DNA from: an uncultured Spirochaetota bacterium
GTDB taxonomy: Bacteria; Spirochaetota; Brevinematia; Brevinematales; JAOACQ01
NCBI GenBank assembly: GCA_963768055.1
Contig: CAVYGN010000002.1
Location: 1,152,001 to 1,216,000, forward strand
Direction: 5' to 3'
Length of the DNA: 64,000 nt
Part shown: piece after piece, positions 8,827 through 35,018 of the stretch
How positions within the stretch are numbered: the stretch's first letter is position 1
Layout: every line of letters starts with the position of its first letter
Notes under the pieces: model-generated
Told to the model about the DNA's origin: nothing
Database searches by the model: none
Seen by the model: the letters and a program-made list of their open reading frames with translations, nothing else
Program-made: the position numbers and the translations under genes

Positions 8827-8864
8827 TAGGTTTGTTAATTATATTTTCAGGGGATAATCATTAT

Positions 8865-9023
8865 AAATTTTGCCCTATATAGGCCTCCAGTTTCCCCGTC
8901 TCATGGCCATATAAATTCTCGTAGAGTTATTCGCCGGAGCGTAGAATTAGAATTTTGCGACAATTCCGGTGGTTTCCCTAAAATCCTTAACGTGCTATTT
9001 TTCCCGAATTCTGCGTTCACCCC
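8865..9023 (-). mobile_element. Orphan Tn3-family end: 38-bp IR (8986-9023) plus ~120 bp subterminal sequence
   Basis: rc GGGGTGAACGCAGAATTCGGGAAAAATAGCACGTTAAG; subterminal part homologous to 22763-22920 and 26708-26838. Confidence 0.85.
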
Positions 9024-11805: not shown

Positions 11806-12477
11806 CTAAGAGTTGGGTATGAGTATAGACCTTTTTTTAGAGCTTATTCGCCCGGTGGTAGTTTCTGATATCTTGCTATTATTCTTATACGTCTTCCACG
11901 AAATTTCATATTCCTCAGCCTGGTTGCCCCAGGTCGTCCAGTTTTCCCTTGCGCCCCTGCCGAATAGTTCAAGATAAGGCCCTGGACTGCAGCTTTCAAT
12001 AATCTGATACTGTTCATCCGGCTTCCGGGAATGTTCTCTTTTCATGGTTCTGATGATATTTACCTGGCTTCTCCCTGCTTCTAAAGTCCTCATTTGTCCC
12101 CTGATACCGAAAAGCAAAAGCTCAGTCGTATTCCTGAAATAAAATCCTACCCCTCTGCCATCCGGCCCGCCGTCTTTTCTGATTTTATGCCAGACGATAT
12201 TAGACTTATAATTGAACCCCCATGCTTTCATCACTTCAAGGCCCTCGGGGAGAAGCGCGTTAGGAACCCATAAATATAAATGCGCCGTTTCTTCCGCAAC
12301 CATGTAAACAGGAATTTCACCTATATCGTGAAGATTTAAAGTTTCATACCTTTTCAGCCTTTTATGCTCAGGTGCCATTTTCCCGGTCCTGTTCTGGAAT
12401 TGCCAGGGCGGATCGGCCAGAATCGTTTTAAATTTTCTATCGCTTATGAAATTGATGAAATCGTTCGCGGCGCTCAT
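11806..12477 (-). CDS. MT-A70 family N6-adenine DNA methyltransferase
   Basis: ILADPPW, HLYLWV, AWGF.YK, REHSRKP, YLELFGR. Confidence 0.93.
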   Translation of the reverse strand: MSAANDFINFISDRKFKTILADPPWQFQNRTGKMAPEHKRLKRYETLNLHDIGEIPVYMVAEETAHLYLWVPNALLPEGLEVMKAWGFNYKSNIVWHKIRKDGGPDGRGVGFYFRNTTELLLFGIRGQMRTLEAGRSQVNIIRTMKREHSRKPDEQYQIIESCSPGPYLELFGRGARENWTTWGNQAEEYEISWKTYKNNSKISETTTGRISSKKRSILIPNS

Positions 12478-13067
12478 TATTCTTTCTCCATATAAAGATT
12501 TTTGGAAATACCGAATACTAATAACGGACAGCCGGCTCCGCTTCCACCTTCAATCCTCGGAAGAAGTTTTGACATATGGGTTGTCGAACTACCGTAAGAA
12601 GCGCCTCTTCCTAATTCATCAAATATATCTTGCAGATCATCACAGCGGGTAATAATTATACCGACGCTGATAGCCCTCAGATCAAACAAAAGTCTAAAAT
12701 TGTTCAGGTCCCTGTCAAAGAAAGGATCTTTGTTGTTCCATTCCATTTCAAGGGCGGTTTTATTCTTATAGCAATCTATGCTGTGTGTCGGGGATTCTCT
12801 TATTTCTTCATCTACTTTAACAGCCGTTAAAAACTTCTTTTCAATCCATCCGCGAGCGCCCATGAATTCATCTATCCATTCAGCTATTTTTGTTTTTCTT
12901 CCTCCGGGACTAAGAATCCATGATTTTTTTAACTTAAAGGCTTTTAGCATTTCAATGATATCCTTCCATTCCGAAGGGTAATCACTTTTTAAGATCGCGC
13001 AGGCATGCTTCCATTCGTGAACTTCAAAATTATTCCGGATAATTTCTGGAAGATCTAAAATACTCAT
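12477..13067 (-). CDS. BglII/BstYI-family restriction endonuclease
   Basis: TH.IDCYKNKTALEMEWNNKDPFFDRDL.NF, VGIIIT; overlaps the methyltransferase start. Confidence 0.82.
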   Translation of the reverse strand: MSILDLPEIIRNNFEVHEWKHACAILKSDYPSEWKDIIEMLKAFKLKKSWILSPGGRKTKIAEWIDEFMGARGWIEKKFLTAVKVDEEIRESPTHSIDCYKNKTALEMEWNNKDPFFDRDLNNFRLLFDLRAISVGIIITRCDDLQDIFDELGRGASYGSSTTHMSKLLPRIEGGSGAGCPLLVFGISKNLYMEKE

Positions 13068-18482: not shown

Positions 18483-20033
18483 CTATAATTTGAAGTAACT
18501 GCTATCCCTGGCATACTTGAACGGTAGGTAAGTTTTAGGTGGATGATTCTCGTCATAAGGCTCTTTCAGATCAAGCTCTTTAACCAGGATGCTCTTTACA
18601 CTTGTATAGTTCGGAGTATCATAGAAAATTGCCCTCCTGCAGGCCGCTTCTAAGCGCTCTTTCGGATATTTCTTAGAAAGGAACAAAATACCTCTCGCAG
18701 AACGGAACCCGTCTATCTGTCTATTTGAAAGTATCCTTTCAACAACTTCCAGTGTCGTTTTTCCTATGTTTCCAGCCCAGGTAAGCAGGGATTGTGATGT
18801 TTCTGCCATATATTCTTCTTTGTAGGGCGGCGCGTGAAGGGGATTATGTGTATATTTCCATTTTATTCCGGATTTCTCATGAAGCGCTATCAATTCGTAC
18901 CCGGAATATACTTTTACAGACTTTGAATCTGCGCAGACCATTACTTCCTGGCCGATATACTTGTAAGGGACGCTATAGTATGAGCTGTCGTACTGAATCA
19001 GCCATTCGGGCCTTACAACGCAGGTTTTCCAGTTTATCATATCCCAATCTGTTAAAGGGAGCTTTGAGAGGGTCTTTGATTCTTCAATAAACATTTCGCA
19101 GGGGGATCTTCCTACGCCATGAATAATTCTGATATCTGCCGTGTCTTCATCCCATTTTTTAAGCGACTCTTCAAGATCAATTGATATGGGTATTTTGTGG
19201 CCTTTCTGTTCCTGTTTCTCGATGAAATACGGCCAGAAGTTTCTTTTAATATATTTGATATCATTCTCTACGCCGCCCTTGTGTTCCGGTTTCCCGGGAA
19301 GACATGGACTGATCATGAAATCGTAATACTTGGCCATTTCAAGAAAACTTCGATTAAAGATAGGGTCATAAAATGCGGCTTTTACAACGGCCGATTTCAG
19401 GTTGTCCGGCACGATCTTCTTCGGTATTCCTCCAAAGTGATGAAAAGAATGTATGATGCATAGAAAAAATGTCTCTTTTTTCTGGTTATAGACCACCTCG
19501 CGATATGCCTTACGGCTCTTTCTAAGCCTGCCGGAGAATACCCAGGCTTTTCTGTTCCTGCATTCCAGCGGATCATAGACTATGCCGAGATATCCGAAAT
19601 CCACTTCCATAACCCCGTCTTCAAGGGGTCTGATCATCACGCTTGGTTTCAAAGCAGGAAATTTTCTCTGTATATACCGCCGGACGGTTGTTTCGGATAT
19701 ATTTGCACAATCAGAAAATTCACTGATCAGCTTGTGAATAACCACATAACTTTTTTCATCTTCCCTGTATTTTTTTAGTTTCTCAATATGATTATCCAGG
19801 ATGTGAGGTTTTCCTTTGATATTTTCCGGCTCATTATATGCCAGGTCCATTTCTTTTTCTGTGGGCACGTCTGATGACGATGAAAGCCATTCCTTTTTAT
19901 CGCCTATATCCTTTATTTTTCTTATGACTTCCCGGTGTGTCCCGGTTTCTTTGTGGATATTTCTGATAGATTCGCCTTTCTTTAGCCGGGTCAATATTTC
20001 GATGAGTTGTGCCATGGTTTTTACCCTCGCCAT
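18483..20033 (-). CDS. istA: IS21 transposase
   Basis: MEVDFG, FGGIPKKIVPDNLKS, PEHKGGVE, YYSVP. Confidence 0.95.
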   Translation of the reverse strand: MARVKTMAQLIEILTRLKKGESIRNIHKETGTHREVIRKIKDIGDKKEWLSSSSDVPTEKEMDLAYNEPENIKGKPHILDNHIEKLKKYREDEKSYVVIHKLISEFSDCANISETTVRRYIQRKFPALKPSVMIRPLEDGVMEVDFGYLGIVYDPLECRNRKAWVFSGRLRKSRKAYREVVYNQKKETFFLCIIHSFHHFGGIPKKIVPDNLKSAVVKAAFYDPIFNRSFLEMAKYYDFMISPCLPGKPEHKGGVENDIKYIKRNFWPYFIEKQEQKGHKIPISIDLEESLKKWDEDTADIRIIHGVGRSPCEMFIEESKTLSKLPLTDWDMINWKTCVVRPEWLIQYDSSYYSVPYKYIGQEVMVCADSKSVKVYSGYELIALHEKSGIKWKYTHNPLHAPPYKEEYMAETSQSLLTWAGNIGKTTLEVVERILSNRQIDGFRSARGILFLSKKYPKERLEAACRRAIFYDTPNYTSVKSILVKELDLKEPYDENHPPKTYLPFKYARDSSYFKL

Positions 20034-20250
20034 TCATTCCCCTCCTGTGTGATTTCAAAAATTATATCACATCAGGTGGGTCACTAAATACGCCGGGGGG
20101 TGGGTCACTTAAAGTGCCGATAGGTGGGTCGTTATTTTTGCCGACCCTGGGTCACTTGGGGTGCCGGATTGCACCCATAAAGAAATAGAAATATTGTTTA
20201 TTCTAGCATTAAAATAAGTTAAAATATATTTATAGTTATTAAGGATAGTT

Positions 20251-20439
20251 ATGCCAAAAGTAAAAATGGCAATTGATTTGATAGAAAAAGATGGATGGTT
20301 TATTTCAAGGATAAGAGGAGATCATAGACAATATAAACACCTAAGTAAGAAAGGTCTTGTAACAATCCCCGGTAAAATGTCTGATGATTTGGCTCCCGGG
20401 ACTTTTAATAGTATCTTAAAACAAGCCGGATTAAAGTAG
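20251..20439 (+). CDS. hicA: HicA family toxin
   Basis: DGW...RGDHRQYKH..KKGLVTIP...DLAPGT..SILKQAGL. Confidence 0.93.
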   Translation: MPKVKMAIDLIEKDGWFISRIRGDHRQYKHLSKKGLVTIPGKMSDDLAPGTFNSILKQAGLK

Positions 20440-20447
20440 GAGGCACA

Positions 20448-20672
20448 ATGAAAAGATTTACTGTAAATTTCGAAAAAACTAATACAGGTTACAGCGCTTA
20501 TATACCGGACTTGCCTGGATGTGTAGCTACTGGCGCCACAAAAGAAGAATGTGAAAAGAGTATTTATGAGGCATTGAAGTTCCATATAGAGGGAATGGTC
20601 GAAGAAGGTTTGCCGATACCTGATAGTATCACAGATAGTGAAGTAATGTTTGTCCCGGATCTTGTAAAATAA
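20448..20672 (+). CDS. hicB: HicB family antitoxin
   Basis: YSAYIPDLPGCVATGAT.EE....EAL..H. Confidence 0.93.
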   Translation: MKRFTVNFEKTNTGYSAYIPDLPGCVATGATKEECEKSIYEALKFHIEGMVEEGLPIPDSITDSEVMFVPDLVK

Positions 20673-20684
20673 GAAAAACTATAG

Positions 20685-20994
20685 AAAACTTCTGCCAGTC
20701 CCCTGCAAGTAAAATCATTTTGCAAGTTGCGTAATTCGTTGCGGAAAAATAAGTTGTGGAATATCCGTATCCCCCTCTCTACGAATCCTGTAATTCTTTA
20801 CCCTGCAATCATTTGTGTTAATTTATCTTGATTTTATGTGGTTAGAGTGGCTCATTTGGTTGAAAAAAGGGTATTCTATCAAATTCTTACCAATCCAGCC
20901 AAACCTGCCAAAAAAAGCATTTTTATTAAAATTTGCCAGTCTGGTGCCGGTAAATTATATAGAGTTACGAGTTTTACTGACACTGGAAAAAATA
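20685..20994 (+). repeat. Long intergenic repeat, copy B
   Basis: AAAACTTCTGCCAGTCCCCTGC...TACTGACACTG; direct repeat of 21568-21913. Confidence 0.9.
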
Positions 20995-21019
20995 TGTTTT
21001 TTGAATAAAAAAAAGAATA

Positions 21020-21307
21020 TTATGATACTCGCCGTTTTAAGATATCATAAAAATTTTCTCTTTTCCCAATCATCAGGATTGTAACAATATTTTCATTTTC
21101 ATTGATGATAAAACATATCCTGTATTCTGTTCTTACTTCCTTGAAATGATAAGAATATATTCCATTTAGGTTGCCTGTTAATTTTTCATATTTGAAAGGG
21201 TCTCTAAGAATATTGTCAATATGACTCTGCTGAATTTTTTTAATAACTGTGTAATCCAATGATTTTAAATCTTTTTTGACTTGAGGATGATATTCATCCT
21301 TAAACAC
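21020..21307 (-). CDS. RelE/ParE family toxin
   Basis: HPQVKKDLK.LD, LTGNL.GIYS.H, YRI.F, IGKRENFY. Confidence 0.9.
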   Translation of the reverse strand: MFKDEYHPQVKKDLKSLDYTVIKKIQQSHIDNILRDPFKYEKLTGNLNGIYSYHFKEVRTEYRICFIINENENIVTILMIGKRENFYDILKRRVS

Positions 21308-21482
21308 TAAATATTTCCGCTCTTGAAATGGGTTTGACCTTCTTTTTTTCTATTTCGTTTTTTCTCTTGATTAAATTTCCGGAAATTCCGGAAAGCAAAA
21401 CTAATAGAGTTTCTTTATCATGGCGATTTAAATTATTAACAGTTTCAGCCAGTGTTTCCATGCTGATTTTTAATTGGGGCAT
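21300..21482 (-). CDS. Putative antitoxin of the RelE toxin
   Basis: Small upstream gene overlapping the toxin start; GGAGGA RBS. Confidence 0.75.
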   Translation of the reverse strand: MPQLKISMETLAETVNNLNRHDKETLLVLLSGISGNLIKRKNEIEKKKVKPISRAEIFSV

Positions 21483-21567
21483 ATTGTCCTCCATTCTGAC
21501 CACATTAAAATTTTAACTAATGGAATGGTTTGTGTCAAACGGCTTATAAATATGAGAATTTTAATAA

Positions 21568-21913
21568 AAAACTTCTGCCAGTCCCCTGCCAGTAAAATTA
21601 TTTTCCGGGTTGTGTTATTCTATGCAGAGTAATGAATTATAGGATATCCGTATCCCCATCTCTCCGATATCCTGTAAGTCTTTACCCGCCAATAAGTTAT
21701 GCCGAATTATCTTGATTTTATATGGTTAGAGGGGTTCATTTGGTTGAATAATGGCTACTTTATGAAATTCTAACCAATCCAGCCAAAAAAAGCATTTTTA
21801 ACAAAATTTGCCAGTCAGGTGTCTCTGATGGCCGAAGGCTGCCAGTAGATTATAATTAGTTACGTGATTTACTGACACTGACAAAAATAGGAGTTTGATT
21901 AGTGAAAATGTGT
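21568..21913 (+). repeat. Long intergenic repeat, copy C
   Basis: Direct repeat of 20685-20994 with a short insertion. Confidence 0.9.
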
Positions 21914-22178
21914 ATCTTAGAGTTTTTCAGTCAACGCACTGTTCAAAATGCACTCTTTGTGAAAACTAGTCAATTTTAACAGGTTAACAGGTTAAATTGT
22001 GCGTTAATTTCTTCTCGGTAAAGAATGCTCTCAATATTGGTAAATTTGGAGAGTTATTTGGGAAATCTTGGCTTAAATTTATAAGTAAAGAAAGCATGCT
22101 CGGCAATTCATCTTGACAAAATTGATATTTCTTATTTAATTTTATTTAGGACATTTACAAACAAAGAAGGGGGAGATA

Positions 22179-22745
22179 ATGAGAAAACTTATATGGCAAA
22201 TGAGTGTTTCTTTAGACGGTTATGCAGATCATACAGAGGTAATTGCAGATACCTCCCCCGAAGCTTTCGATGAGTTGTTTGATTTTACCACTAAACAATG
22301 GGATCAAATGGATTTCTTGTTGTTCGGACGGGTTACTTATCAACTTATGGAGGTCTGGCACAAAGTTCCCGAAGACCCTAATGCAACAAAGAAGATGATT
22401 GAATTTGCAAACAAGTTTAATGCTATGCCAAAAATTGTATTTTCACGATCCCTCCAGAAAACTGTGCGGGAGAATGAAAGATTGATAAGAGATAATGTCA
22501 TTGAAGAAATTATCAAATTAAAGCAGCAATCTGGCAAGGACTTATCCATAGGCGGTTTAAACCTCCCTCAAGAATTTATAAGACATGGATTGATTGATGA
22601 ATACCTACTTTTGCTTCAACCTCATATTTTAGGGAAAGGGAAGCGTTTGTTCGATGGTTTAGAAGAAAAAATCAAACTGAAACTTATTAATACGGTGACG
22701 TTTCAGTCCGGTGTAGTCGTTTTACGCTATTCCTCTGAAAAGTAA
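22179..22745 (+). CDS. Dihydrofolate reductase/RibD C-terminal domain protein
   Basis: SVSLDGY, LLFGRVTY, PKIVFS, GLIDEY, LGKGKRLF, SGVVVLRY. Confidence 0.9.
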   Translation: MRKLIWQMSVSLDGYADHTEVIADTSPEAFDELFDFTTKQWDQMDFLLFGRVTYQLMEVWHKVPEDPNATKKMIEFANKFNAMPKIVFSRSLQKTVRENERLIRDNVIEEIIKLKQQSGKDLSIGGLNLPQEFIRHGLIDEYLLLLQPHILGKGKRLFDGLEEKIKLKLINTVTFQSGVVVLRYSSEK

Positions 22746-22762
22746 GTTTTCCTCCACTAAAT

Positions 22763-22920
22763 GGGGTAGCCGCAGAATTCGGACAAATTGGTACAACGTT
22801 AATGATTGGGGAAACTCAAAAAAAACCGTAAAATTCTAATTTTACACTCCGGAGAATAACCCGGCGAGTAAATAAGACCATGAGGCGGGAAAACAGGGGG
22901 CCCTATAGAGGGCAAAATTT
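22763..22920 (+). mobile_element. Orphan Tn3-family end (degenerate IR plus subterminal segment)
   Basis: GGGGTAGCCGCAGAATTCGGACAAATTGGTACAACGTTAA; colinear with rc 8865-9023. Confidence 0.75.
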
Positions 22921-22982
22921 CAGGGGGTGTGGATCCTTCGCATTCTAACAAGATAAATGGTTCCAAATGAATGAAATATTAT

Positions 22983-23948
22983 TTAATCGTTTGTAATCAT
23001 TTTATTAGTTATGATGGAATTTGAACTTATTGTTTCGTTGGTGTTAACAACTTTTGTATTGAGGTCATTGGGTTCAATGAAATCAATATATTCATTACCA
23101 ATAATAAAATTATTTAATTTCAGTTCAAATCTCATTTTCCCCTTATGAGCATTTCTGTCATTGTATATATTATTGTGCCAAGTATTCCAACTTACTGATT
23201 TTGGATGGAACTTATAACCACCCTGATCAATAATATTATTATTGCTATCATAAACAGTTGTTACCAAATAATATGTGTTTTTAGATAAATTAAACCATTT
23301 AACATAAAAATACAAATCTTGATCGCGCCCTAAAATATAATAATTAACCTCTGGGTTATTATTACCTGCCCTTAAATGAAAAACTGCCTTATATTTTATA
23401 TTAGTTTGATCTTCCTTACTTAAAATGAGATTGGATGCTCCCATAGGGTCTACCGAACTCGAGTATAGGGCCAGGGCCCCCGTTATATTAGTATTGGTAC
23501 TTACAAAATCAATGAATTCATTTCCAAGCACATAATTGTTAAGAGTAATCTCAAACCTGTATTTTCCGGGTGCTATGTTAGCATTGTATTTTCTTTTAAA
23601 CCATGTTCTGAAATAATATTCTTGCATCTGGAAATAATTATGGAAACTGTCGATAATTTTATTACTTTCATTATAAACTTTTAAAGATAGCAGATATTTA
23701 TCATTTGGCATCTTCCATTCTATATATATAATCAAGTTCCTGCCAGAATCCAGCGAATATTTATCCAATTTACCCACAGGTTTAAAAACCCTATCCAGCA
23801 AGTCTGTAAAGGTTAGATCATACCATATATTCGAAGCATTATCCTTTGTCAATGGCCTTATCCAATATTTGCCGATTTTTATCAAATTGTCATCGGTAAA
23901 CCCCGCCAAAGTAGTTGTGAATAATAATAATAGCATAATTTTAATCAT
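22983..23948 (-). CDS. Secreted protein with an internally duplicated beta-rich domain
   Basis: Signal peptide; two copies of ..Y..W...Y.L...VY.....IID...TW.....GK.RFE..LNN...GNE.IDF. Confidence 0.75.
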   Translation of the reverse strand: MIKIMLLLLFTTTLAGFTDDNLIKIGKYWIRPLTKDNASNIWYDLTFTDLLDRVFKPVGKLDKYSLDSGRNLIIYIEWKMPNDKYLLSLKVYNESNKIIDSFHNYFQMQEYYFRTWFKRKYNANIAPGKYRFEITLNNYVLGNEFIDFVSTNTNITGALALYSSSVDPMGASNLILSKEDQTNIKYKAVFHLRAGNNNPEVNYYILGRDQDLYFYVKWFNLSKNTYYLVTTVYDSNNNIIDQGGYKFHPKSVSWNTWHNNIYNDRNAHKGKMRFELKLNNFIIGNEYIDFIEPNDLNTKVVNTNETISSNSIITNKMITND

Positions 23949-24383
23949 TATTTCCCTCCTCTTCGCGGATGGTTACCCTAGAATGCCGAGACTATCAAAA
24001 TTTAGAAAATCCTTATTTTTAATCTGAATATTATTAACCTTCAAAAGGTTGAAAAATCTTAATTTATTTAAAATTTATTGTCAATATTCATGAAAATAAG
24101 AGAAGACTATTTAAGAAATTCCCAGGTTGTGGATCCTCACAATTCTAACAAAAGGAAAGTCGGTTCTGAAGTCATTAAGCAATATAAATGCAAATATAAT
24201 AAAATTGAATCTAATGTGACTTTTGTCGGCAATGTTGGAGGTACTCCATTAAGATCAAATGTCACTTTAATTTTCTTTAATTAAATCGGCGGCTTGTAAA
24301 ATTCTCAAACCTTTGATAAATAAAAATATTCCAATTCCCCGTGTGTTAGGATAGTTGTCGCCTAAAATATTAGGAGACAAAAA

Positions 24384-24866
24384 ATGAATAGTCAAATTCG
24401 TTCAGAGGAATTCAGGAAATCTATCGTTCAAAAGATGTGTATGCCAGGAGGAAAAACAGTATCTGAACTGAGCCAGGAAATAGGAGTATGTGAACAAACC
24501 CTTTACAACTGGAGGAAAATGATCCAGAATAATGTATCCAGAGGATTCCAGGATAGAAGCCCGAGAGGCTGGAAATTATCTGATAAATATCAGGCGGTAG
24601 TAGACGCAGCAAGCCAATCGGGAGAAGAGTTAGGACAGTGGTTGAGAAAAAATGGTCTCCAGTCGACTCATATCGAACTCTGGAAACAGGAGTGTTTATC
24701 AGTGATATCTAATAACTCATACAGAGAAGAAAACAAGGGTTTGAAAGCAAAAATCATAGAGTTAGAAAAAGAAATTAACCGTAAGGATAAAACTATAGCC
24801 GAGGTTACTTCTCTGCTGGTGCTTAAAAAAAAACTGAACAAGCTGTTCGGGATCGAGGAAGATTAA
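24384..24866 (+). CDS. IS3 transposase OrfA
   Basis: N-terminal HTH, coiled coil, LLVLKKK ending on an A9C slippery site (24825-24834). Confidence 0.9.
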   Translation: MNSQIRSEEFRKSIVQKMCMPGGKTVSELSQEIGVCEQTLYNWRKMIQNNVSRGFQDRSPRGWKLSDKYQAVVDAASQSGEELGQWLRKNGLQSTHIELWKQECLSVISNNSYREENKGLKAKIIELEKEINRKDKTIAEVTSLLVLKKKLNKLFGIEED

Positions 24867-24871
24867 CTCCA

Positions 24872-25900
24872 TTGGATATACGCATAGATATCTGTGCCTT
24901 GATTAATGAGGCTGTTACGACAGGGGCCAGCAGGGATAAGGCTTGTGAAGAATCTGGCTATGATATAAGGACCATACAGCGCTGGAATAAAAATCTTGAG
25001 GGAGACAGAAGAAAATTGAGAAATGTAATGCCTTCAAATGCCCTGTCGGCCGAAGAAAGGGAGGAGATCATCTCCTGCTGTTGCAGCGAGAGATTTAGAG
25101 ATATGACGCCGAATGAAATAGTGCCCATGCTGGCAGAGGAAGGTCGGTATATAGCATCAGAATCATCTTTTTACCGCGTTTTAAAGGACAATGATTTGCT
25201 GCACCATAGATACGAAACGAAGCCGAAAACGGCAAGGAAAACGCCAAGAGAACTGGAAGCGACGGGTCCTAATCAGGTATGGAGTTGGGATATTACATAT
25301 ATATCCAGTCATATAAAAGGTAAGTATTTCTACCTCTATATGATCGAAGATGTCTGGAGCCGTAAGATAGTCGGCTGGAAAATGCACGAGGAGGAAAGCT
25401 CTGATCATGCCGCAAGAATGGTGGCAGAGATCGGAGAAACCATTGATTTGAAAGGCTTGTATTTACATTCTGATAATGGTTCTCCTATGAAAGGGGCTAC
25501 GATGTTAGCGACCTTGCAGAGGTTACAGGTTATGCCGTCGTTTTCAAGGCCGAGTGTAAGTAACGATAACCCTTACTCAGAATCATTGTTTAAAACATTG
25601 AAATATAATGTGAAATACCCAGGCAATTTCGAGACAATGGAATCGGTAGAAATATGGATGCAAAATTTTGTAGACTGGTATAATAATAAACATCTTCATT
25701 CAGGGATCGGATATGTCACACCAGCACAGAGACATGAAGGTAAAGATAAGGCGATACTCCTGAAGAGAGCGGAAACTTATGCGGCTGCAAAAAGCAGACA
25801 TCCTGAAAGATGGTCAGGAGAATCTAAAAAATGGGAACGGATAGAATCGGTATTTTTAAACCCGAGTAAGACTAACAAGGAATCGTTGGTTGCGGCGTAA
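24872..25900 (+). CDS. IS3 transposase OrfB (DDE), probably fused to OrfA by -1 frameshift
   Basis: PNQVWSWDITY, LHSDNGS, NDNPYSESLFKTLK. Confidence 0.95.
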   Translation: MDIRIDICALINEAVTTGASRDKACEESGYDIRTIQRWNKNLEGDRRKLRNVMPSNALSAEEREEIISCCCSERFRDMTPNEIVPMLAEEGRYIASESSFYRVLKDNDLLHHRYETKPKTARKTPRELEATGPNQVWSWDITYISSHIKGKYFYLYMIEDVWSRKIVGWKMHEEESSDHAARMVAEIGETIDLKGLYLHSDNGSPMKGATMLATLQRLQVMPSFSRPSVSNDNPYSESLFKTLKYNVKYPGNFETMESVEIWMQNFVDWYNNKHLHSGIGYVTPAQRHEGKDKAILLKRAETYAAAKSRHPERWSGESKKWERIESVFLNPSKTNKESLVAA

Positions 25901-26707
25901 AATAAAAGCGACAACTCCCTTGACAAAAACCGCAATTATTATGCCTATTAATGTAAATGTACTGTTAAAATATGGTAAGGATCTATAGAAAATAGAAGAA
26001 TAAGTTATTATCATTGAGAAAACGAAAAACATAACGGGGAATATTATACTTGATAGGAGATACATTTTATAACCTGCTTCCCACATTTCATTGGTTGTAT
26101 TATTTCTATAAGCCAAAGCTTTAAATCCTGCATCATTATTGCCCTGAACGGCAACGACAATATTGTCATTTTTGGAGACTGATACAGGTTTATAGGATTT
26201 GACTATAATAATTTTTTCATTCAACATAAACATAAAGATATAAGTTCTTACCATAAATCTTATAGTGCTCACGCCATATCTATATTGAATAGGCATATAA
26301 TATGGTTTATCTTTTATTGTTTTATCTATTGTGGTAGCTAGACCTTTAAGTATTTCCATCTGGTAAGACCCCTAAAAATTGTATTATTAAATATTTACCA
26401 TTTGACACCTTGTTCTCCCGAAAAAATACTTCACAAATTACTCGAAGTAAAAAAATATATTTTAAGAGAAATTCTATTTTACTAATCCTTTATTGTCAAA
26501 TGCAAGAAAATAAAAGAGGAATAGACCAGGGATTTACAAACTGTGGATCCTTCTATCGCTTTTCACAAAGAAATATGGCATAAAGGTTATAGAATTTTTA
26601 TTTTGGAGAAAATACTAATTTGATACCGTTTCATAGAAAATGCTAATACGATACCCCTCTAACTGAACTCCTACTTCAGCAAAAGGGGTAAGAATTCCTT
26701 GTGAATA

Positions 26708-26838
26708 GGGGTGGACGCAGAATTCGGGAAAAATAGTACGCTAAGGATTTAAGGGTTATCCCCCAAAAACCTGCAAAATTCCAAATATACGCCCCGGTGA
26801 ATACCTCGTTAGCTAAATTAAGGACATGGGGCAGGAAA
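26708..26838 (+). mobile_element. Orphan Tn3-family end: 38-bp IR (26708-26745) plus subterminal segment
   Basis: GGGGTGGACGCAGAATTCGGGAAAAATAGTACGCTAAG, close to the Tn501/Tn1721 IR as recalled. Confidence 0.88.
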
Positions 26839-26881
26839 GTCAGACTGTGAATCTAAACAATTTTAACAAAGAAAGTTTTAG

Positions 26882-27045
26882 ATTAATCTTTGTATATGTT
26901 TATATTATCTGAAATTATTTCAAATTTACAAATGTTTTCCGGATCCAAACTCCCAATGCCACTTGAAATTTTTATTATCTATGGTTGTTTTGATATAACC
27001 AGATTTTCCTTTTGTTTCAATTTCAACATGAATATTATAATCCAT
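26882..27045 (-). pseudogene. Small truncated gene between two motif copies
   Basis: Hand translation MDYNIHVEIETKGKSGYIKTTIDNKNFKWHWEFGSG, then frame break; TTGACA upstream. Confidence 0.4.
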
Positions 27046-27172
27046 AAAAAATTCTATTTTATCCAATTACTATTGTCAATGTTAGAGTGTGGATCCTTCG
27101 CAATTCTAACAAAGAAAAACTTCCAACCTAGTTGAAACCTGCTATTTTCAAAAAATATAGTGGATAATTAAT

Positions 27173-27907
27173 TTAATTTTTTATGGCTATTACTGTGTTA
27201 AACCAAAATCCCTGGGGTAGAAATTTGGGTTTTTCAATCCTGACTGACATTCCAGCCTTAGAGAAAACATCTTTGTATTCTTTAATAAAAAAATAAGCCG
27301 CGTCAGATATTATGACAATCCCTCCGGGTTTAAGAACACGGTAAATTTCCAGGCAAGCGCTGTATCTTTCCTTTTTCGAAGGTATATTATGAAGGCATAG
27401 ATTTGAAAGTACAATATCAAAATATCCTCCGGGAAAAGATGTTTTTATTATATTTTCGTTTTTAATCTCAATCCTGCCGGAAACATTTTCTATTTCAGCG
27501 TTCTTAATTGCACTGTCAGCTATATTAACCGCCATATCCTGCTGTCTCCAGATGTCAATCCCTATCGACTTCCCATACGGCAGTTTTTTAGCGGCACCAA
27601 TCATAAGCAAGCCATGTCCTGTTCCGACATCAAGGACGGTTTCGTTTCCCTTCCATTCAATATTTGATAATATAGCATCCCTGTGCTTTAATTTTCCAAT
27701 CCTTATATAAATGATCAACTTGGTCGCTCTGTACAAAATAACAATCCCGAAAATCAAAATAACACAAGCGGCTAAACGAAATAAAAGCCCATGTAAAACA
27801 AAAAGTGAAACAATAAGAGTTGCATCGGTTACAACAGCTATTATCAAAGTAATGATCGTAACCCGCGGGTTGCCATCCCAGCCGTAATCGGGATTTACCT
27901 GTTTCAT
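27173..27907 (-). CDS. Class I SAM-dependent methyltransferase with N-terminal membrane helices
   Basis: YGWD, VLDVGTGHG, GIDIW, FDIVLSNLCLHNI, RVLKPGG. Confidence 0.92.
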   Translation of the reverse strand: MKQVNPDYGWDGNPRVTIITLIIAVVTDATLIVSLFVLHGLLFRLAACVILIFGIVILYRATKLIIYIRIGKLKHRDAILSNIEWKGNETVLDVGTGHGLLMIGAAKKLPYGKSIGIDIWRQQDMAVNIADSAIKNAEIENVSGRIEIKNENIIKTSFPGGYFDIVLSNLCLHNIPSKKERYSACLEIYRVLKPGGIVIISDAAYFFIKEYKDVFSKAGMSVRIEKPKFLPQGFWFNTVIAIKN

Positions 27908-28016
27908 TCAAAACCCCTATTTTTTATATGGAATTATAAATGCTTAATAGAGATTGTTCAATAATAACCTAATTATGAAATCATGTGACTCGAAAAGTCT
28001 TTTGTTAAAACATACG

Positions 28017-29717
28017 TTGCCTGTCGTTTTTTATCAATAACCCATGTACATTGAGACCTCATCCCGTTATAATAAATGTAAGAAAAACGGGAGTAATCTA
28101 TGGCAAACTTCGAGCATAATACAAGCAGCCAGGGATTGTTTTTATCTATCCAACTTGAAGATCAGTTTGATCCGGATAGCCGTGAATATATTATAAAAGA
28201 GTTTATTCAGAAAAATGTAAAAATTGAAGATTTTGAAGAAGAATACAAGAACGATCATACTGGCCGTAAAATCAAAAATCCTCAAGATGTCGTCGCGGCA
28301 ATCCTTTACGGTTACATTACAGGAAACCGTTCAAGCCGCAAGATCGAAGAACTCCTGAAAACTCACATCGGGTTCATGTATATCTCTAATTGTCTTAAGA
28401 TTGATCATTCGATCATTTGTAATTTCAAGATTAAATTTCGGGAACAGATTAAAAATGTTTTCAGCAAAATGCTTTATGTAATGAATGAAATTGAAATGAT
28501 AGACTGGAGCATTGTTGCAGGCGACGGAACTAAGATTAAGGCTTATGCGAGTAAAGGCCAGAACATAGGCAGGGGATTCATACAAAAACTTCTTGAAGCA
28601 TATCACGAGACGGCTGACAAGATAGTTGAACGGGATATTGAACTTGAAAAAGATTTCGAAGAGGGTAAAATCGACCCTAAAGAGCATGATGCGAAAAAGA
28701 TGCGCATTATCAGACAGAAGCGAAAAATTGAAAAGGCTATTTCCAAGATGAATAAATGCATCGAAGATGATGAAACGAACAAAAAATCTGAAAAGAAACG
28801 GGTTAATCTAACAGATCCGGATAGTGGTTTGACAGTGTCAGGTTCGAAAGATGGATATATCCAGGGGTATAATGCGCTGCTTATGTTAAGCAATAATGAT
28901 GTTGTTCTTGATTTTGATGTAATCACTTATGAAAAGGAATGTAATTATACAGAAGAATTGGTCAATGGGGTTGAAGAGCTTAAGAAGGATTTTGGAGCTG
29001 AAGAAGAAAGCAAATATTTATTTGATTGGGGATTTCAAAACATGGAAAAAACACTCAAGCTCGAGGATAAAGGGCTTGATATGTATATTGATGTCAGGGA
29101 AAGGGATTTCTGCGATAAATCCGAAAAGCGGAAAAATTTTAAGTTAATAAATACAGAGGGACAATATAAACTCAAATGTCGTAATAATAAGGAAACAAAG
29201 GGATATTGGAATAAGAGAACCAATAGTTTCTCATTCCTGTTTGACCGCAAAAAGTGTAAGGGTTGTCCTTTCATGCCAGAATGTTATAGTAAGACGAAGG
29301 AAACGACTTTACATAAGACAGTTTCGTATTATAGATTCGAGGTTGAAAATTGGGATAAGATAGAAAAATACATGAATAAATTCCGAAGCGAGGAAGGTCA
29401 AAAAATATACTCGAAACGAATAGGTAAAGAACATGTTCATGCAAACATAAAAAACCAGCGTAACTTTCAACAGACTTATTACCGGGGAAAGTCAAATGTC
29501 AGGATGGACCTCTGCTGGGCGGTTCTGGCACAGAATATGTGTCGTTATATCAACTATATGAGGAAATAGGAGGGAATTTGGTAGGATTTCAACCATTATA
29601 AAAAAGCTGTTTCAATCTTTGGAATTTATCCGAGGGCTGACCAAACTTTTTCAAAAATTTAAGCATGATATCGTAAGAGAATCCCTGTTTTTTTAAATTG
29701 TATTAAACGACAGGCAA
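28017..29717 (+). mobile_element. IS1182-family element
   Basis: 13-bp perfect IR TTGCCTGTCGTTT; 5-bp DR ATACG at 28012-28016 and 29718-29722. Confidence 0.9.
28100..29569 (+). CDS. IS1182-family transposase
   Basis: LYGY..G.RSSRKIE, DGTKIKAYAS, NLTDPDS, QGYN, CKGCP, Y.KR...E. Confidence 0.9.
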   Translation: MANFEHNTSSQGLFLSIQLEDQFDPDSREYIIKEFIQKNVKIEDFEEEYKNDHTGRKIKNPQDVVAAILYGYITGNRSSRKIEELLKTHIGFMYISNCLKIDHSIICNFKIKFREQIKNVFSKMLYVMNEIEMIDWSIVAGDGTKIKAYASKGQNIGRGFIQKLLEAYHETADKIVERDIELEKDFEEGKIDPKEHDAKKMRIIRQKRKIEKAISKMNKCIEDDETNKKSEKKRVNLTDPDSGLTVSGSKDGYIQGYNALLMLSNNDVVLDFDVITYEKECNYTEELVNGVEELKKDFGAEEESKYLFDWGFQNMEKTLKLEDKGLDMYIDVRERDFCDKSEKRKNFKLINTEGQYKLKCRNNKETKGYWNKRTNSFSFLFDRKKCKGCPFMPECYSKTKETTLHKTVSYYRFEVENWDKIEKYMNKFRSEEGQKIYSKRIGKEHVHANIKNQRNFQQTYYRGKSNVRMDLCWAVLAQNMCRYINYMRK

Positions 29718-29925
29718 ATACGATATTCACAAATGACACCCCTTTTCCCCATAATATTTCCTTGCTTTTTACCTCTTTTTTGTGAGAATTATGGTACTCC
29801 ATTTGTTAAAATTTAATGAGTCCGGTCTAAAAAGTATTCATTTAGAAACGTACAAATCGTGATCAAAACATTGATAATAACAACATAACTAATTACAATA
29901 TATGCAATTGAAATTTAGGAGTGGT

Positions 29926-30198
29926 TCAATGTTCAAAGAAAACAATTGTAAAAATAGCAAGGCAAAACGTGAGCCATTTTATTGCAACCTCTTCATTGTG
30001 AAGTGCATCTCTAAGGCGCCGATTTGATTCCACAATTGCGCTATTGTTTATAGAGTACGATGCCCGGAGTATTTTTATATCGGGTAATTTCATTATTTTT
30101 TCTAATTTATCGTCTGGTAAATTTACAATACCCATATTTTCTGTACGTGCCGGTGAACCAATTATATCGGCAAGCTTAAGATTCTTATCTATTTTCAT
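29926..30198 (-). CDS. Small hypothetical membrane protein
   Basis: Open frame with a hydrophobic C-terminus. Confidence 0.4.
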   Translation of the reverse strand: MKIDKNLKLADIIGSPARTENMGIVNLPDDKLEKIMKLPDIKILRASYSINNSAIVESNRRLRDALHNEEVAIKWLTFCLAIFTIVFFEH

Positions 30199-30285
30199 GA
30201 ATACCATAATTTGCGGTCTTCACGCCGGCTTAATATTTATATAAGTTGACAACCAGTGGTTTACTATGCTATTATTATAGTTGAT

Positions 30286-30564
30286 ATGATAAAATCTTTT
30301 CAGCATAAAGGGCATAAAGCCTTTTTTAATACAGGCACAAAAAGTGGCATAAACCCCGATCATGCCGAGAAGATCGACTTCATCCTTGCCACCCTAAGAA
30401 CATCAAGAAGTCCCCAAGACATGAGACTACCGATGTTCGATCTCCACGAATTGAAGGGGGATCGCAAGGGAACATGGGCGGTAAGCGTAAGCGGAAACTG
30501 GCGGATAACATTTAAATTTGAAGATGAAAACGCCATAGATGTAAATTATGAGGATTACCATTGA
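30286..30564 (+). CDS. higB: HigB (plasmid maintenance killer) toxin
   Basis: MIKSF.HKG, LHELKGDRKGTWAVSVSGNWRITF.F, DVNYEDYH. Confidence 0.93.
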   Translation: MIKSFQHKGHKAFFNTGTKSGINPDHAEKIDFILATLRTSRSPQDMRLPMFDLHELKGDRKGTWAVSVSGNWRITFKFEDENAIDVNYEDYH

Positions 30565-30574
30565 GAGGATTAAA

Positions 30575-30874
30575 ATGAATATAACCGAAAGGAAACCCAT
30601 GCATCCGGGCAAATTATTGCTTGAGGCGGTTATTAAACCGTTAAATTTAACCATTACCGAGGCCGCTAAAAGGCTTGGTACGTCCAGACAGAATTTGACC
30701 GATCTCATACATGAACGAATATCACTCACTGTTGATATGGCGATGAGGATTGCTGCTGCGACCGGCACAAGTCCGGAAAGCTGGTATGATCGCCAGGTCA
30801 TTTTAGACATGTGGACTGCATCAAAAGAACCACCGAGAGATATAATTAAATTCTCAGGAAAGAAAACAGCATAG
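30575..30874 (+). CDS. higA: HigA antitoxin
   Basis: HPGKLL, LTITEAAKRLG.SRQ, GTSPESW..Q...D.W. Confidence 0.93.
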   Translation: MNITERKPMHPGKLLLEAVIKPLNLTITEAAKRLGTSRQNLTDLIHERISLTVDMAMRIAAATGTSPESWYDRQVILDMWTASKEPPRDIIKFSGKKTA

Positions 30875-30894
30875 GATACATTTTTTATGAATTC

Positions 30895-30939
30895 TACTGA
30901 CACTGGAAAGGGTAGGAGTTTTATAATATGAAAATGTGT
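30895..30939 (+). repeat. Partial copy D (3' end) of the long intergenic repeat
   Basis: TACTGACACTG-N7-TAGGAGTTT-N7-TGAAAATGTGT matches 21870-21913. Confidence 0.75.
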
Positions 30940-30941
30940 TT

Positions 30942-31520
30942 ATGATTGATTCGAAAAAACGCATCTGCTGGCCAACAAATGATCCTCTCGTTGTTGAATA
31001 TCATGACAAGGAATGGGGCGTCCCCCTCCATGATGATAGAAGACTGTTCGAATTCCTTGTCCTCGAAGGATTCCAGGCGGGCCTGAGCTGGATTACAATT
31101 CTAAGAAAAAGGAAGCGCTTCAGGGAAGCGTTCGACGATTTCGATTTCAGCAAAGTTGCCGGATACGGAGAAAAGAAAGTAGGCCTTCTTATGGAAGATT
31201 CGGGAATAATAAGAAATAGGCTCAAAATCGTTGGAGCGGTGGCAAATGCGAAAGCATTTTTATCGGTCAGGAAAGAATTCGGGGATTTTGACAGGTATAT
31301 TTGGGGTTTTGTTCAAAACAAGCCGATTCGGAATAATTTCACTTCCCTGGAAGAACTTCCGGCAAGCACTGAATTATCCGGAATTATCAGCGTGGACTTG
31401 AAAAAAAGAGGGTTCAGGTTTGTAGGTCCAACGGTCGTTTACGCTCATATGCAGGCAACCGGAATGGTCAACGACCACCTGGTATCCTGCCCCAGGCATG
31501 GGGAAATCGCTGTATTGTAA
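30942..31520 (+). CDS. tag: DNA-3-methyladenine glycosylase I
   Basis: YHDKEWGVP, LEGFQAGLSW.TIL, GF.FVGPT, GMVNDHL..C. Confidence 0.95.
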   Translation: MIDSKKRICWPTNDPLVVEYHDKEWGVPLHDDRRLFEFLVLEGFQAGLSWITILRKRKRFREAFDDFDFSKVAGYGEKKVGLLMEDSGIIRNRLKIVGAVANAKAFLSVRKEFGDFDRYIWGFVQNKPIRNNFTSLEELPASTELSGIISVDLKKRGFRFVGPTVVYAHMQATGMVNDHLVSCPRHGEIAVL

Positions 31521-31712
31521 TTGAAAGTTTGAATAATTCTTTTTTCATTATACCCGCCATAATTTCCCGGGAATTTTAACTGGCCCGAAAAAAAATTTAA
31601 ATAGCCCTGCAGGATCTGGTCAGGACCGCGAAGTCAGAGGCCGGCAAGACTAAACTCCCTGCTGAAGGATCATTTCCTCCGGCAGGGAGAAAGGTTTTTT
31701 AATAAAATAAGT

Positions 31713-32579
31713 TTAAAGATCGCTTAAAGCGTATATTTTATTGTTAATATTTTGTATGGTAATATATCTGGCGTCATGGCTGATAAATACGCTCCCAAAC
31801 CCTAATGAAACCGCTTCCGGTACTCTTTCTTCTTTCCATGAATTACCGGCATCGGATGTGCGGGCGATAATCCATTTCAAAGTCTTATCCAGGTAAATCA
31901 GGACTGCGTCTTTTTCGGATGTAAATCGCAGGGCGGAATATGGCTGCCTTTCCAGAGGCATGAGTGACCTTCCGTTCAGATTAACCGATTTTTTATTCCA
32001 TGTCTTCGCTCCGTCGGTTGTTGTAAAGAGACTCCCCCCGCTGTCAAAAAGATAGCCGGTTTTCGGGTTCAATAATGAAATAGCTTCGATTTCCAGTATC
32101 CCTTCGGGAAGTTTTATGGCAGTCCATGATTTGCCTCCGTCGGAAGTATTGGCTAGCAATTCCTGGGAACCGATCCAGCCGTTGCTGGCGTCCGAAAAGC
32201 TGAGATAACGGCACTGATTCGGTTCGGATCCGCCGAAAGAAGCCAATTCCGACCAATTAACCCCGCTGTCGTGAGATATACGTACATTTCTGTAGTTTCC
32301 GCAGCTCCAGGCATTTTTAGCATCCAGAATTTCGAGTCCGAACAGGCAATATGAAGAATTAGTTCCGTGTGGCCATGTTTTCCCACCATCGGTCGTATAA
32401 TGCACTTCACCCGCATACCCTGCGGTAATGCCGGTTCCGGCATTGTTAAACCCTGCGATATAAACGTGAAAAGAATAATCTGAAACCGATAAAACCTTCC
32501 AGCCGGAATCCGCGAATACACAGGCCGAATTGATCAGCAAACCAAGAATTGTACAGTGAACAACAGTTAACAAACGCAT
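31713..32579 (-). CDS. Secreted YCF48/BNR-repeat beta-propeller protein
   Basis: Signal peptide; repeated T.DGG..W Asp boxes. Confidence 0.85.
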   Translation of the reverse strand: MRLLTVVHCTILGLLINSACVFADSGWKVLSVSDYSFHVYIAGFNNAGTGITAGYAGEVHYTTDGGKTWPHGTNSSYCLFGLEILDAKNAWSCGNYRNVRISHDSGVNWSELASFGGSEPNQCRYLSFSDASNGWIGSQELLANTSDGGKSWTAIKLPEGILEIEAISLLNPKTGYLFDSGGSLFTTTDGAKTWNKKSVNLNGRSLMPLERQPYSALRFTSEKDAVLIYLDKTLKWIIARTSDAGNSWKEERVPEAVSLGFGSVFISHDARYITIQNINNKIYALSDL

Positions 32580-33828: not shown

Positions 33829-35018
33829 CTAAATTACATGTTTTTTGGGTATTCTGGATAAAAATAAAAAAATCAGTGTAATGCATCCAAGTACAATCAT
33901 TGTCATATGTAATGATTTATCTGCAAGTAGCCCGACACAAGGATAAAGAAGAAACATAATCAATTTTTCCAGCATTGACACACCGGAAAGTACTGTGGCC
34001 CGGTTCCTGCTTTCAATAAGCTGATTCATTAAATCCGACAAAAGCGGTGCTCTGAGCTGTTTGAGGCCTGCAATGCTAAATATTGCCGGAATAATAATAA
34101 AAGGTGAAAAAGTAAAACCCAATAAAATAAAAAATATTCCGGGAATTAAAGCGGAAAAAAGGATAAGTGTTTTTAATCCGAATATTTTTTCAAGTCTTGA
34201 AGAGTTAAATAAAAGCAGCATCCCGATTAGATTAAAGCCGGCTCCGAAGAAACCGTTCCATCCGATAGGAAATCCGGCCAGTCCGGTTATTTTCTGATAA
34301 AACCAGTAGATAAAAAATGTTACAGCAGATATCAATGCAAAATTAAATCCGTATAAACGTATACCTGGATGACGGAAAATATATAAAAAACCATATACGC
34401 CTTCTTTAACAAGGCTCTCGATTTTCTTATGTCTCCCGGGTTCTTTTACGAATATGGACGCTGTTCCAGCAAGAAACATGATAACCCGGAAAGAATAAAT
34501 GTATAAGGTAAGCCTTTCGGATATTGAAATAGATTGCTTCCAGCCAGAAGTGAACCTATTGGGAAAGCTGCAAGCATTCCGATTGTTCCAAAAGCATCCG
34601 ATCGTGAAAAATAACTGCGGGATTCTTTTTCTTTTCCGTACTCAAGCAATGTATCGAAAAGCAGCGCCCGGTCAGTACCCGAAAACAAAGCCATTCCAAT
34701 AGCGCAAATAAAGTTCGCTATATAGAAAACAATATAGTTATTAACCAGCCCAAATAGAAGGAATCCAAGCCCGGAAAATATACCTCCCAGGACAAGTGAA
34801 AATTTTCTTCCGAATTTATCGGCGATTACTCCGGTTGGAATTTCAAGCAATACAACTTCAAGAGCGAAAACCGCTTCCAGAATAAAAGAACGAGTATAAT
34901 CCAGTTTTGCCCAGGCAAGGTAAAAAAGCAAAGTGACCGAACCAAAAAAAAGAAAGTTTTTGAGAAATTCGAAAAGATAAATAAGATTAATATTTTTATT
35001 TAAACTTTGCCGATTCAT
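33829..35018 (-). pseudogene. MFS transporter split by a 1-nt frameshift
   Basis: LEIPTGVIADKFGRK motif A; the two ORFs join near 34475-34487. Confidence 0.85.

Follow-up and report, generated by a model that had tools for sequence, protein, structure and literature searches.

Single genes arrayed behind a Tn3-end-derived promoter module in an uncultured spirochaete: possible scars of recombinase-driven shuffling

The window analysed here, a 64,000-nucleotide stretch of DNA from an uncultured Spirochaetota bacterium (GenBank assembly GCA_963768055.1, contig CAVYGN010000002.1), contains between positions 22,928 and 27,907 a row of genes and one mobile element that is punctuated by five copies of a short motif, here termed C (Table 1). 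C follows the pattern TGTGRATCY-N5-9-TTYTMACAA, and a scan locates all five copies on the plus strand at the positions where an earlier inspection of the letters (the sequence-only reading) had noticed them. C1 and C5, at the two ends of the array, are set apart by a single inserted base within their 24-25-nt core, and their flanks past ACAA differ. According to the sequence-only reading, C is an independent scar of ~26 bp left by repeated gene capture. This part of the claim has to be abandoned: C forms the sharply bounded inner edge of a repeat of 130-195 bp, which is a promoter module derived from the end of a Tn3-family transposon.

Table 1. Coordinates of the motif copies, module parts and neighbouring features in the window, and of the two tnpI genes elsewhere in the genome (IR, terminal inverted repeat; ORF, open reading frame).
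Feature	Position	Strand	Method
Motif copy C1, TGTGGATCC TTCGCA TTCTAACAA	22928..22951	+	pattern scan
Motif copy C2, TGTGGATCC TCACAA TTCTAACAA	24128..24151	+	pattern scan
Motif copy C3, TGTGGATCC TTCTATCGC TTTTCACAA, longest spacer	26542..26568	+	pattern scan
Motif copy C4, TGTGAATCT AAACAA TTTTAACAA	26846..26869	+	pattern scan
Motif copy C5, TGTGGATCC TTCGCAA TTCTAACAA	27088..27112	+	pattern scan
First Tn3-family IR, GGGG tip at 22763, element interior rightward	22763..22800	+	
Second Tn3-family IR, followed by box and shortened B	26708..26745	+	
Third Tn3 end of the same type (IR, box, B), with degenerate motif	~8830..9023	-	
Box, 18-bp palindrome GTAAAATTCTAATTTTAC, homologous to the -10 region of P2, P3 and P5	22828..22845	.	
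Block B (CATGAGGCGGG...CAAAATTTCAGGGGG), kept beside the motif in relatives	22879..22927	+	
Diverged AT-rich block B between P2 and C2	24085..24127	+	alignment
Promoter P2, TTGACA-17-TAAGAT, predicted to drive the 321-aa ORF	24056..24084	-	promoter scan
Promoter P3, TTGACA-17-TAGAAT	26471..26499	-	promoter scan
Promoter P5, TTGACA-17-TAGAAT, 8 nt from C5; B missing	27051..27079	-	promoter scan
Near-perfect palindromic relative of the site (TTGTGAAAA-N7/8-TTTTAACAG), ~200 nt upstream of the RibD_C-family gene	21957..21982	.	palindrome scan
RibD_C-family (dihydrofolate-reductase-like) gene, directly outside the first Tn3 end	22179..22745	+	
321-aa ORF, signal-peptide-like N-terminus	22983..23948	-	
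IS3-family insertion sequence; orfA 24384-24866, orfB 24872-25900	24337..25932	+	
167-aa ORF, no Pfam family	25856..26359	-	
Small ORF, 39 aa from ATG, 46 aa from TTG at 27066; starts right after P5	26926..27045	-	
Class I S-adenosylmethionine-dependent methyltransferase	27173..27907	-	
tnpI gene, source genome	contig C2:1571316-1572053		
tnpI gene, source genome	contig C2:1577416-1578060		

In the source genome (G000; 3,688,977 bases in two contigs), strict and relaxed scans with the two-part pattern return the five window copies and one degenerate copy at contig C2:50964. Five of the six sites fall within 4.2 kb, and the reversed-sequence control of the 3.69-Mb genome contains none; as the sequence-only reading requires, C is no regulator site scattered over the genome. 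By itself, the left 9-mer is weakly enriched (5 observed versus 2.0 expected; 5 or more in 4 of 100 shuffles). Throughout, G001 and G003 denote genomes of the same genus and G006 one of the same family, and contigs C1 and C2 are distinct from the motif copies C1-C5.

Alignments of the window copies with those of relatives reveal the order of the module: a Tn3-type IR in some copies, a box that provides the -10 element of an outward promoter, a block B of ~50 bp, and then C. The box (AAAATTCTAATTTTAC) lies left of B and coincides with the -10 region of P2, P3 and P5; B (CATGAGGCGGGAAAACAGGGGGCCCTATAGAGGGCAAAATTTCAGGGGG) abuts C on its left; the IR, where present, is found ~55 nt beyond the box. 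On the right, the repeat ends sharply in ACAA plus about six A-rich bases. On the left its limit is ragged, with B shortened at C4 and missing at C5. At -10 the box contains TTAGAAT, which is common to the arm TTGTTAGAAT, and direct repeats inside B are weak.

Copies with an IR comprise C1, C4, the end at 9023, one copy in G001 and one in G003. Copies with a promoter comprise C2, C3, C5, a copy at contig C2:1026041 and further ones in G001 and G006, which drive higBA, a GtrA-like gene and an ankyrin gene. The alignments show the two types to be homologous over box, B and C. The minus-strand TTGACA hexamers to which the sequence-only reading had drawn attention before three copies prove to belong to predicted promoters directly left of C2, C3 and C5; on the minus strand no other promoter match in the region scores higher, and the three rank among the best scores of the promoter scan (10-11 of 12 matches), and C sits 8-43 nt upstream of their strong -35 boxes. 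Its observation that two copies follow Tn3-type ends was likewise correct, as C1 and C4 lie behind the first and the second IR. Four copies were also said to lie shortly beyond the 3' end of an unrelated minus-strand gene; at C2, the IS3-family element stands between that gene and the copy.

Tn3-family transposons with full TnpA elsewhere on the contig have IRs that match the three at 22763, 26708 and 9023. The 38-bp terminal IR with its GGGG tip is absent at C2, C3 and C5. Mutually, the end-segment copies are 69-79% alike, and their sole match in a plasmid collection is a 40-nt stretch of the IR. A search for remnants of the tnpA 3' end in these segments by blastx against three TnpA proteins gave nothing below E 0.02. 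Two other identities of the B-C unit were rejected. A small encoded peptide is open in copy 1 and frame-shifted or stopped in the other copies, and for a miniature inverted-repeat transposable element the unit has ends that are related neither to each other nor to the IR, with no flanking duplications seen.

Pattern and DNA searches detected copies of the repeat in G000, G001, G003 and G006. At least 16 well-formed copies exist in these four genomes of one uncultured Spirochaetota family, and 16 were tabulated. Other genomes of the class have none, save one 18-nt match at E 0.009. A wider collection of genome contigs gave 41 loci; by inspection one of them (G006) has the repeat context, and the others look like chance or coding matches. 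Two metagenome scans yielded, respectively, nothing and one contig that is 100% identical to G001.

The flanking genes are diverse and often ordinary (dapA, FtsJ-type methyltransferase, AhpC, MatE, ABC, glyoxalase). Within C, the left arm follows the genome, being TGTGGATCC in four of six G000 copies and TGTGAATCC in three of six G001 copies, with single variants making up the remainder, and three classes of right arm and unrelated spacers are mixed within one array. The span from TGT to ACA measures 23 nt in nine of the 16 copies, 24 nt in six and 26 nt in one. The left neighbour is transcribed away from the module in 8/16 copies as computed and in 10/16 after removal of two spurious ORF calls. 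A gene 3' end lies 5-126 nt from C on the minus strand in 9/16, or 10/16 if the 39-46-aa ORF right of C4, which falls below the 50-aa cut, is included.

Three side observations concern the relatives. An IR-type copy with a degenerate motif in G003 (L093 970-2536, contig C1) carries PabB-like and aminotransferase-IV (PabC-like) genes, so that folate-related cargo recurs near such ends, the window having its dihydrofolate-reductase-like RibD_C gene. A miniature Tn3-derived element of 251 bp, bounded by two inverted Tn3-type IRs of the same kind, is present in G004 (L092 860-1110, contig C3). A short TCTCCCTGTGAAAAT-like repeat containing the arm TGTGAAAAT recurs beside motif copies, at L076 ~1395-1425 and near 1026000 on contig C2 of G000.

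Comparison between genomes places switches of gene content or synteny at the motif or ~10-100 nt from it, in agreement with the sequence-only reading. In G003 the order is arsR, a methyltransferase gene (96% DNA identity to 27135-28012), one B-C unit and a RibD_C gene (75% to 22140-22743); between the same homologous genes, the window has five copies of C, three ORFs, the IS3 element and a second IR. One IR-type copy of G001 combines a left flank that matches that of C1 (z 22, 0/300 shuffles) with a right flank that matches that of C2 (z 15, 0/300). A solitary copy in G000 is flanked by a dapA block that shares its synteny with G001, G002 and G004 and by another block that shares it with G003; homology resumes 13 nt right of its C. 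For two copies in relatives the flanks map to unlinked places in G000, one homology ending 17 nt from C; a third lies inside an insertion of 1.38 kb, whose neighbouring blocks adjoin each other in G000 and whose edges are ~100 nt from C. Orthologous loci without the site were found as well. Public reads (four runs of one study) cover parts of the window as low-depth contigs (~2x on unique parts), in which neither a joint nor an array-spanning piece was seen and which are too shallow for variants. An IS3 element of the same kind lies to the right of the motif at 26 nt in G001 (L094 ~7860-7935) and at ~107 nt in the window (24152-24337); this coincidence could stem from shared ancestry plus an indel or from target preference near the site.

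The two arms of C form an inverted repeat that is imperfect and of 9-7-9 geometry. Perfect 25-bp palindromes of this geometry, TTGTTAGAA-N7-TTCTAACAA, TTGTTAAAA-N7-TTTTAACAA and TTGTGAAAA-N7-TTTTCACAA, occur in three of 12 genomes of the family, each with one of the three right-arm variants of C, and the control contains none. Their TGT-to-ACA span equals the 23-24 nt of 15/16 copies of C. The palindromic relative in the window (Table 1) is the only match in the genome with at most one mismatch, and near-palindromes with two mismatches number 11 in G000 versus 3 in the control.

The modules might be passive debris, that is, decayed ends of non-autonomous Tn3 elements that were inserted repeatedly into a plastic region and trimmed by insertion-sequence activity and illegitimate deletion, with C never having been a crossover site. 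The region is indeed dense in mobile DNA, with two IS21 elements, one IS3 element, an IS1182-like element and three to four Tn3 ends; it further holds three toxin-antitoxin (TA) pairs and a restriction-modification (RM) system. The end segments are old, given that they are only 69-79% alike, and relatives carry IR-bounded elements in addition to the miniature element of 251 bp, which has the same IR. From Xanthomonas, solo IRs are known as well as single-gene cassettes that are bounded by Tn3 IRs and clustered in tandem (PMC4337579, in part). Decay does not explain, however, why 16 copies share a sharp right boundary at C, why the arms are conserved and the spacer is not, why perfect palindromic versions exist and why copies that lack an IR lie exactly at synteny junctions. 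We regard debris as an unlikely alternative.

A possible precedent for C is offered by transposons with the IR of the module. In IR-bounded elements of this type in relatives, a tyrosine recombinase gene adjoins tnpA, and a 25-bp inverted repeat of 9-7-9 geometry precedes tnpI at all five loci examined out of six found. By hand count it lies ~60-130 nt before the start. The examples TTGATAAAA-N7-TTTTATCAA, TTGGTAAAA-N7-TTTTACCAA and TTGCTAAAA-N7-AAATAGCAA display C-like geometry and TTGnTAAAA arms. A single arm repeat overlaps the -10 element at four of the five tnpI loci, and the distance from core to -10 is ~67-71 nt there, compared with 65-66 nt from C to the -10 of P2 and P3 (hand counts). 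Tn4430 has an IRS in which a core of two inverted motifs is accompanied by accessory repeats, and TnpI can act on bare cores after random collision, as set out in part of PMC2847244. By analogy with Tn4430 (PMC2847244) and Tn5401 (PMC7157771), each source being available in part, we read the tnpI-linked repeats as putative irs cores with accessory sites. Each of the four genomes that have B-C encodes a strong TnpI homologue, compared with one of the eight that lack it, where the gene is interrupted by a stop.

On the basis of these results, we tentatively propose that each module is an orphan, a recombination site of the irs type together with its promoter, which derives from a non-autonomous, TnpI-type Tn3-family element and was recombined in trans. 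This reading is favoured because the conserved left half, the mixed right arms and spacers, the sharp right boundary and the synteny breaks resemble hybrid sites. C as the crossover site, TnpI as the enzyme and growth of the array by such events are what we infer. In such a mechanism C would be a putative protein-binding site, recognized by a TnpI-like recombinase encoded elsewhere in the genome. By crossing-over in the spacer, the conserved left half, B plus promoter, would become linked to the right halves and flanks of other sites; segments consisting of one gene and its own module would be excised, inserted and stacked head to tail; a hybrid site would remain at each junction, and the embedded promoter would express whichever gene lands behind it.

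Several observations weigh against this proposal. The spacers are unlike in sequence, and their lengths vary by 1-3 nt. As tyrosine recombinases normally depend on overlaps that match, most copies would be unable to recombine with one another now. The left arm of C shares only TGTGRA with the palindromic arm, so that C is at best a half-degenerate core, and accessory direct repeats in B were not convincingly identified. The window has no tnpA, and it has no tnpI or other tyrosine recombinase gene, the nearest weak match to the latter lying ~21 kb outside. The two tnpI genes of G000 itself have no 9-7-9 palindrome upstream, and the genome contains no perfect or near-perfect palindrome of the strict form. 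Co-occurrence with TnpI is weak evidence, as it comes from 12 related genomes and is not independent of mobile-element load. Several synteny boundaries lie 20-100 nt from C and outside it, and the right-flank match of the G001 copy consists for the most part of an IS3 end, which is a mobile repeat, and then of part of the 167-aa gene region. The perfect palindromes in relatives are intergenic (MFS/MarR, isocitrate dehydrogenase, TMEM175), none of them beside tnpI, a placement that suits a transcription-factor site equally well. With the enzyme not adjacent, one arm of C degenerate and the spacers different, most copies are probably fossil.

In a second alternative, C is an operator bound by a dimeric transcription factor, the promoter cassette was spread by duplication and homologous recombination and the array represents co-regulated accessory genes. 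Conserved arms around a free spacer are typical of operators, three window copies stand just before strong -35 boxes, left neighbours often read away from the module, and one of the palindromes in ordinary intergenic DNA lies 141 nt upstream of a MarR gene. MarR was nevertheless rejected as the cognate factor, as the distribution of its orthologues does not track the repeat. Nor does a regulon emerge: the genome has only six sites, five of them clustered, and two-mismatch near-palindromes number 11 against 3 in the control. The sites are not kept at orthologous loci and mark synteny breaks instead, and two window copies lack a promoter and abut a transposon IR. On balance an operator seems improbable, to a similar degree as debris.

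The orphan-site proposal may be extended to a dedicated gene-capture system on the Tn3 end, in which single genes, each with an irs-like site that bears a promoter, would leave as circles and be added head to tail at the site beside the IR by a TnpI-family enzyme acting in trans. We consider this stronger version doubtful. The interpretation of the array as gene-capture scars in the sequence-only reading is partly supported.

That reading had suggested as a possible driver the serine resolvase encoded at 11150 (11150-11743), which is unlikely. Its gene is preceded by a putative res site made of ATTAAATA-type repeats, in which C is absent, and the other two tnpR genes of the genome, at contig C2:1558469-1559032 and C2:1598635-1599213, have sites of 30-35 bp with TGTCAGAAT or TGTTCnAAT half-sites. 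Known res crossover subsites measure 28-34 bp, and C, with 23-24 bp, is shorter. The TGT/ACA ends and the variable length of C do recall res subsites. The genome's own TnpR transposon moreover runs from TA genes through a promoter and ~55 nt to res site I, parallel to the gene, promoter, 43 nt and C of the module, and one G001 copy lies upstream of higBA; in the Tn3 family, TA genes regularly lie beside res site I according to part of PMC7157771. Three-subsite clusters were not found, though, and no tnpR adjoins any of the 16 copies. That C is a res subsite for the resolvase at 11150 or for another TnpR is accordingly very unlikely.

The array was said to be integron-like in logic, though without IntI or attC folding, and both absences are borne out. 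The window has no match to PF00589; 14 matches lie elsewhere in the genome, and genome-wide no integrase passes the IntI model, the best TIGR02249 score being 87.8 bits against a cut-off of 265. Single-strand folds of the five copies on both strands resemble shuffles in nine of ten cases (z +0.46 to -1.16; -2.32 in the tenth), and no long dyad of the attC type (57-141 nt) was seen around the copies. Three units of the array have their own near-consensus sigma-70 promoter, unlike promoterless cassettes. An integron was rejected on these grounds. The fold data also bear on the notion that C-B acts at the RNA level, as a 3' untranslated region or terminator module or as a protein-binding RNA between co-directional genes. 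B contains a weak hairpin with a T-run on the minus strand, G-to-A changes in some copies would retain G-U pairs on that strand, and gene 3' ends often lie close to C. The stem comprises just 5 bp, however, RNAalifold predicts no consensus pairs in ten copies, fold energies are mostly shuffle-like, and Rfam has no match in 19000-32000 at E up to 1. A role of this kind appears exceedingly improbable.

Further site types were compared and rejected. A candidate dif site, ATTTCCTATAA-GATATA-TTATGTTAAGT (11-6-11), lies at the cumulative GC-skew maximum (G000 contig C1:1165357, minus strand), and by hand comparison the arms of C match it at 5/11 and ~2/11 positions, which speaks against a Xer/dif site. 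The skew minimum is near contig C2:700000; with the maximum on contig C1 and the minimum on contig C2, the two contigs are probably one chromosome. For a tRNA- or tmRNA-associated att site, no such gene was found. A transcription-factor regulon was dismissed on the small number of genome sites, the orthologous loci without a site and the sites at synteny breaks; CRP, IHF and sigma-54 sites and Tn7-like ends were considered too and appear not to fit in spacing or inverted partners.

Of the known systems, the IRS of Tn4430 and Tn5401 resemble the module in their inverted two-motif core, further motifs and a promoter before the downstream gene (PMC2847244, PMC7157771, both in part). They also lie close to a 38-bp Tn3-type IR, and the resident elements with the same IR carry tnpI and similar 9-7-9 repeats. 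TnpI can act on bare cores inter- and intramolecularly, as far as the same partial sources go (PMC2847244, PMC7157771). In contrast, the module precedes unrelated genes or an IR rather than tnpI or tnpA, the genes downstream of its promoters being unrelated to tnpI-tnpA; C has a degenerate arm, its five copies follow one another in tandem with a single gene apiece, binding at C is putative, and the Tn4430 core is 14-4-14 compared with 9-7-9 in C. Integron arrays share with the locus the co-oriented single-gene units between recurring recombination-type sites and the expansion from one site relative to a related genome. They differ in having IntI and the attC hairpin; here the platform is a transposon end, and the site lies upstream of the gene's own promoter instead of downstream of a promoterless gene. 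Small modules with short sites and an enzyme in trans are also known from the pdif-bounded dif modules of Acinetobacter plasmids and from other elements that exploit Xer; their small gene modules, short recombinase sites and trans-acting enzyme are as proposed for C. C differs, however, from the dif candidate of the genome, and the copies are co-oriented, not alternating. Tn3-family transposons are reported to exchange modules at res, giving hybrids of Tn1, Tn2 and Tn3 or of the Tn21 group. There, too, the transposon-end side is said to be kept and the other side swapped, with a sharp switch of content; those events involve a complete res beside tnpR and yield one hybrid, not a head-to-tail series of genes, each with its own site and promoter.

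Also comparable are Tn3-derived mobile insertion cassettes and inverted-repeat miniature elements, non-autonomous Tn3-IR units with single passengers that are sometimes in tandem with solo IRs (PMC4337579, in part), and the 251-bp IR-IR element of G004 is of this kind. The limits of the units described here are nonetheless set by an internal site in place of IR pairs; an IR occurs at just two of the five junctions, and both IRs have the same direction. A full-text literature search, supplements excluded, found no published single-gene arrays delimited by irs-type sites, and the nearest published case is that of the tandem IR-bounded cassettes in Xanthomonas, in the part of PMC4337579 that was available. 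The copies in the array have the look of scars left by recombinase-driven shuffling, and not of an integron or an ordinary regulator site.

The 321-aa ORF has no confident Pfam family, and no DNA homologue of it turned up in 11 genomes of the family. The 167-aa ORF is probably truncated, because its 3' end enters the IS3 element by 77 nt; no longer ORF spanning that element was found. The IS3 element is partly multi-copy as judged by contig depth, and its actual left end may lie near 24285. A conserved stretch of ~48 nt (26390-26438), which belongs to the 5' leader of the 167-aa ORF and has no Rfam match, recurs at contig C1:273181, 416846 and 555029 of G000 and in G001, G003 and G004.

Elsewhere in the window, a promoter and four small genes, one of them encoding an Xre-type helix-turn-helix protein, lie inward of the third Tn3 end. 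The segment of 13.7 kb that separates the IRs at 9023 and 22763, which face outward, has a plasmid-derived look and includes, at 11806-13067, an RM pair of a BglII-family endonuclease and an MT-A70 methyltransferase beside the serine resolvase, with HU, NYN and TA genes near. A second repeat of ~340 bp (20666-21004, 21549-21899, 30880-30924) separates the TA pairs HicAB, ParE-type and HigBA and may represent another cassette-like type of junction; partial copies cluster near both contig starts (G000 contig C1:5790-18335, C2:11542-22909). A major facilitator superfamily (MFS) transporter at 33829-35018 is split into two overlapping ORFs of 216 and 190 aa, probably by a frameshift. Outside the window, a CRISPR array with 32-nt repeats (G000 contig C2:1589874-1592905, L008) ends ~100 nt from a solo Tn3-type IR, with cas2-like sequence upstream.

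Arrays of this kind would be missed by integron finders, as they have neither attC nor IntI. The two tnpI genes, the three tnpR genes and the defined sites provide testable recombinase and site candidates. Even if the copies are scars, the repeat serves as a marker of rearrangement junctions in an uncultured Spirochaetota family. If capture on the Tn3 end is real, it would be a functional analogue of the integron that arose from the cointegrate-resolution machinery of a transposon, with cassettes that arrive ready for expression. If the sites are active, a transposon resolution system would act in these bacteria as a platform for stacking and shuffling genes, a second route to integron-like arrays.

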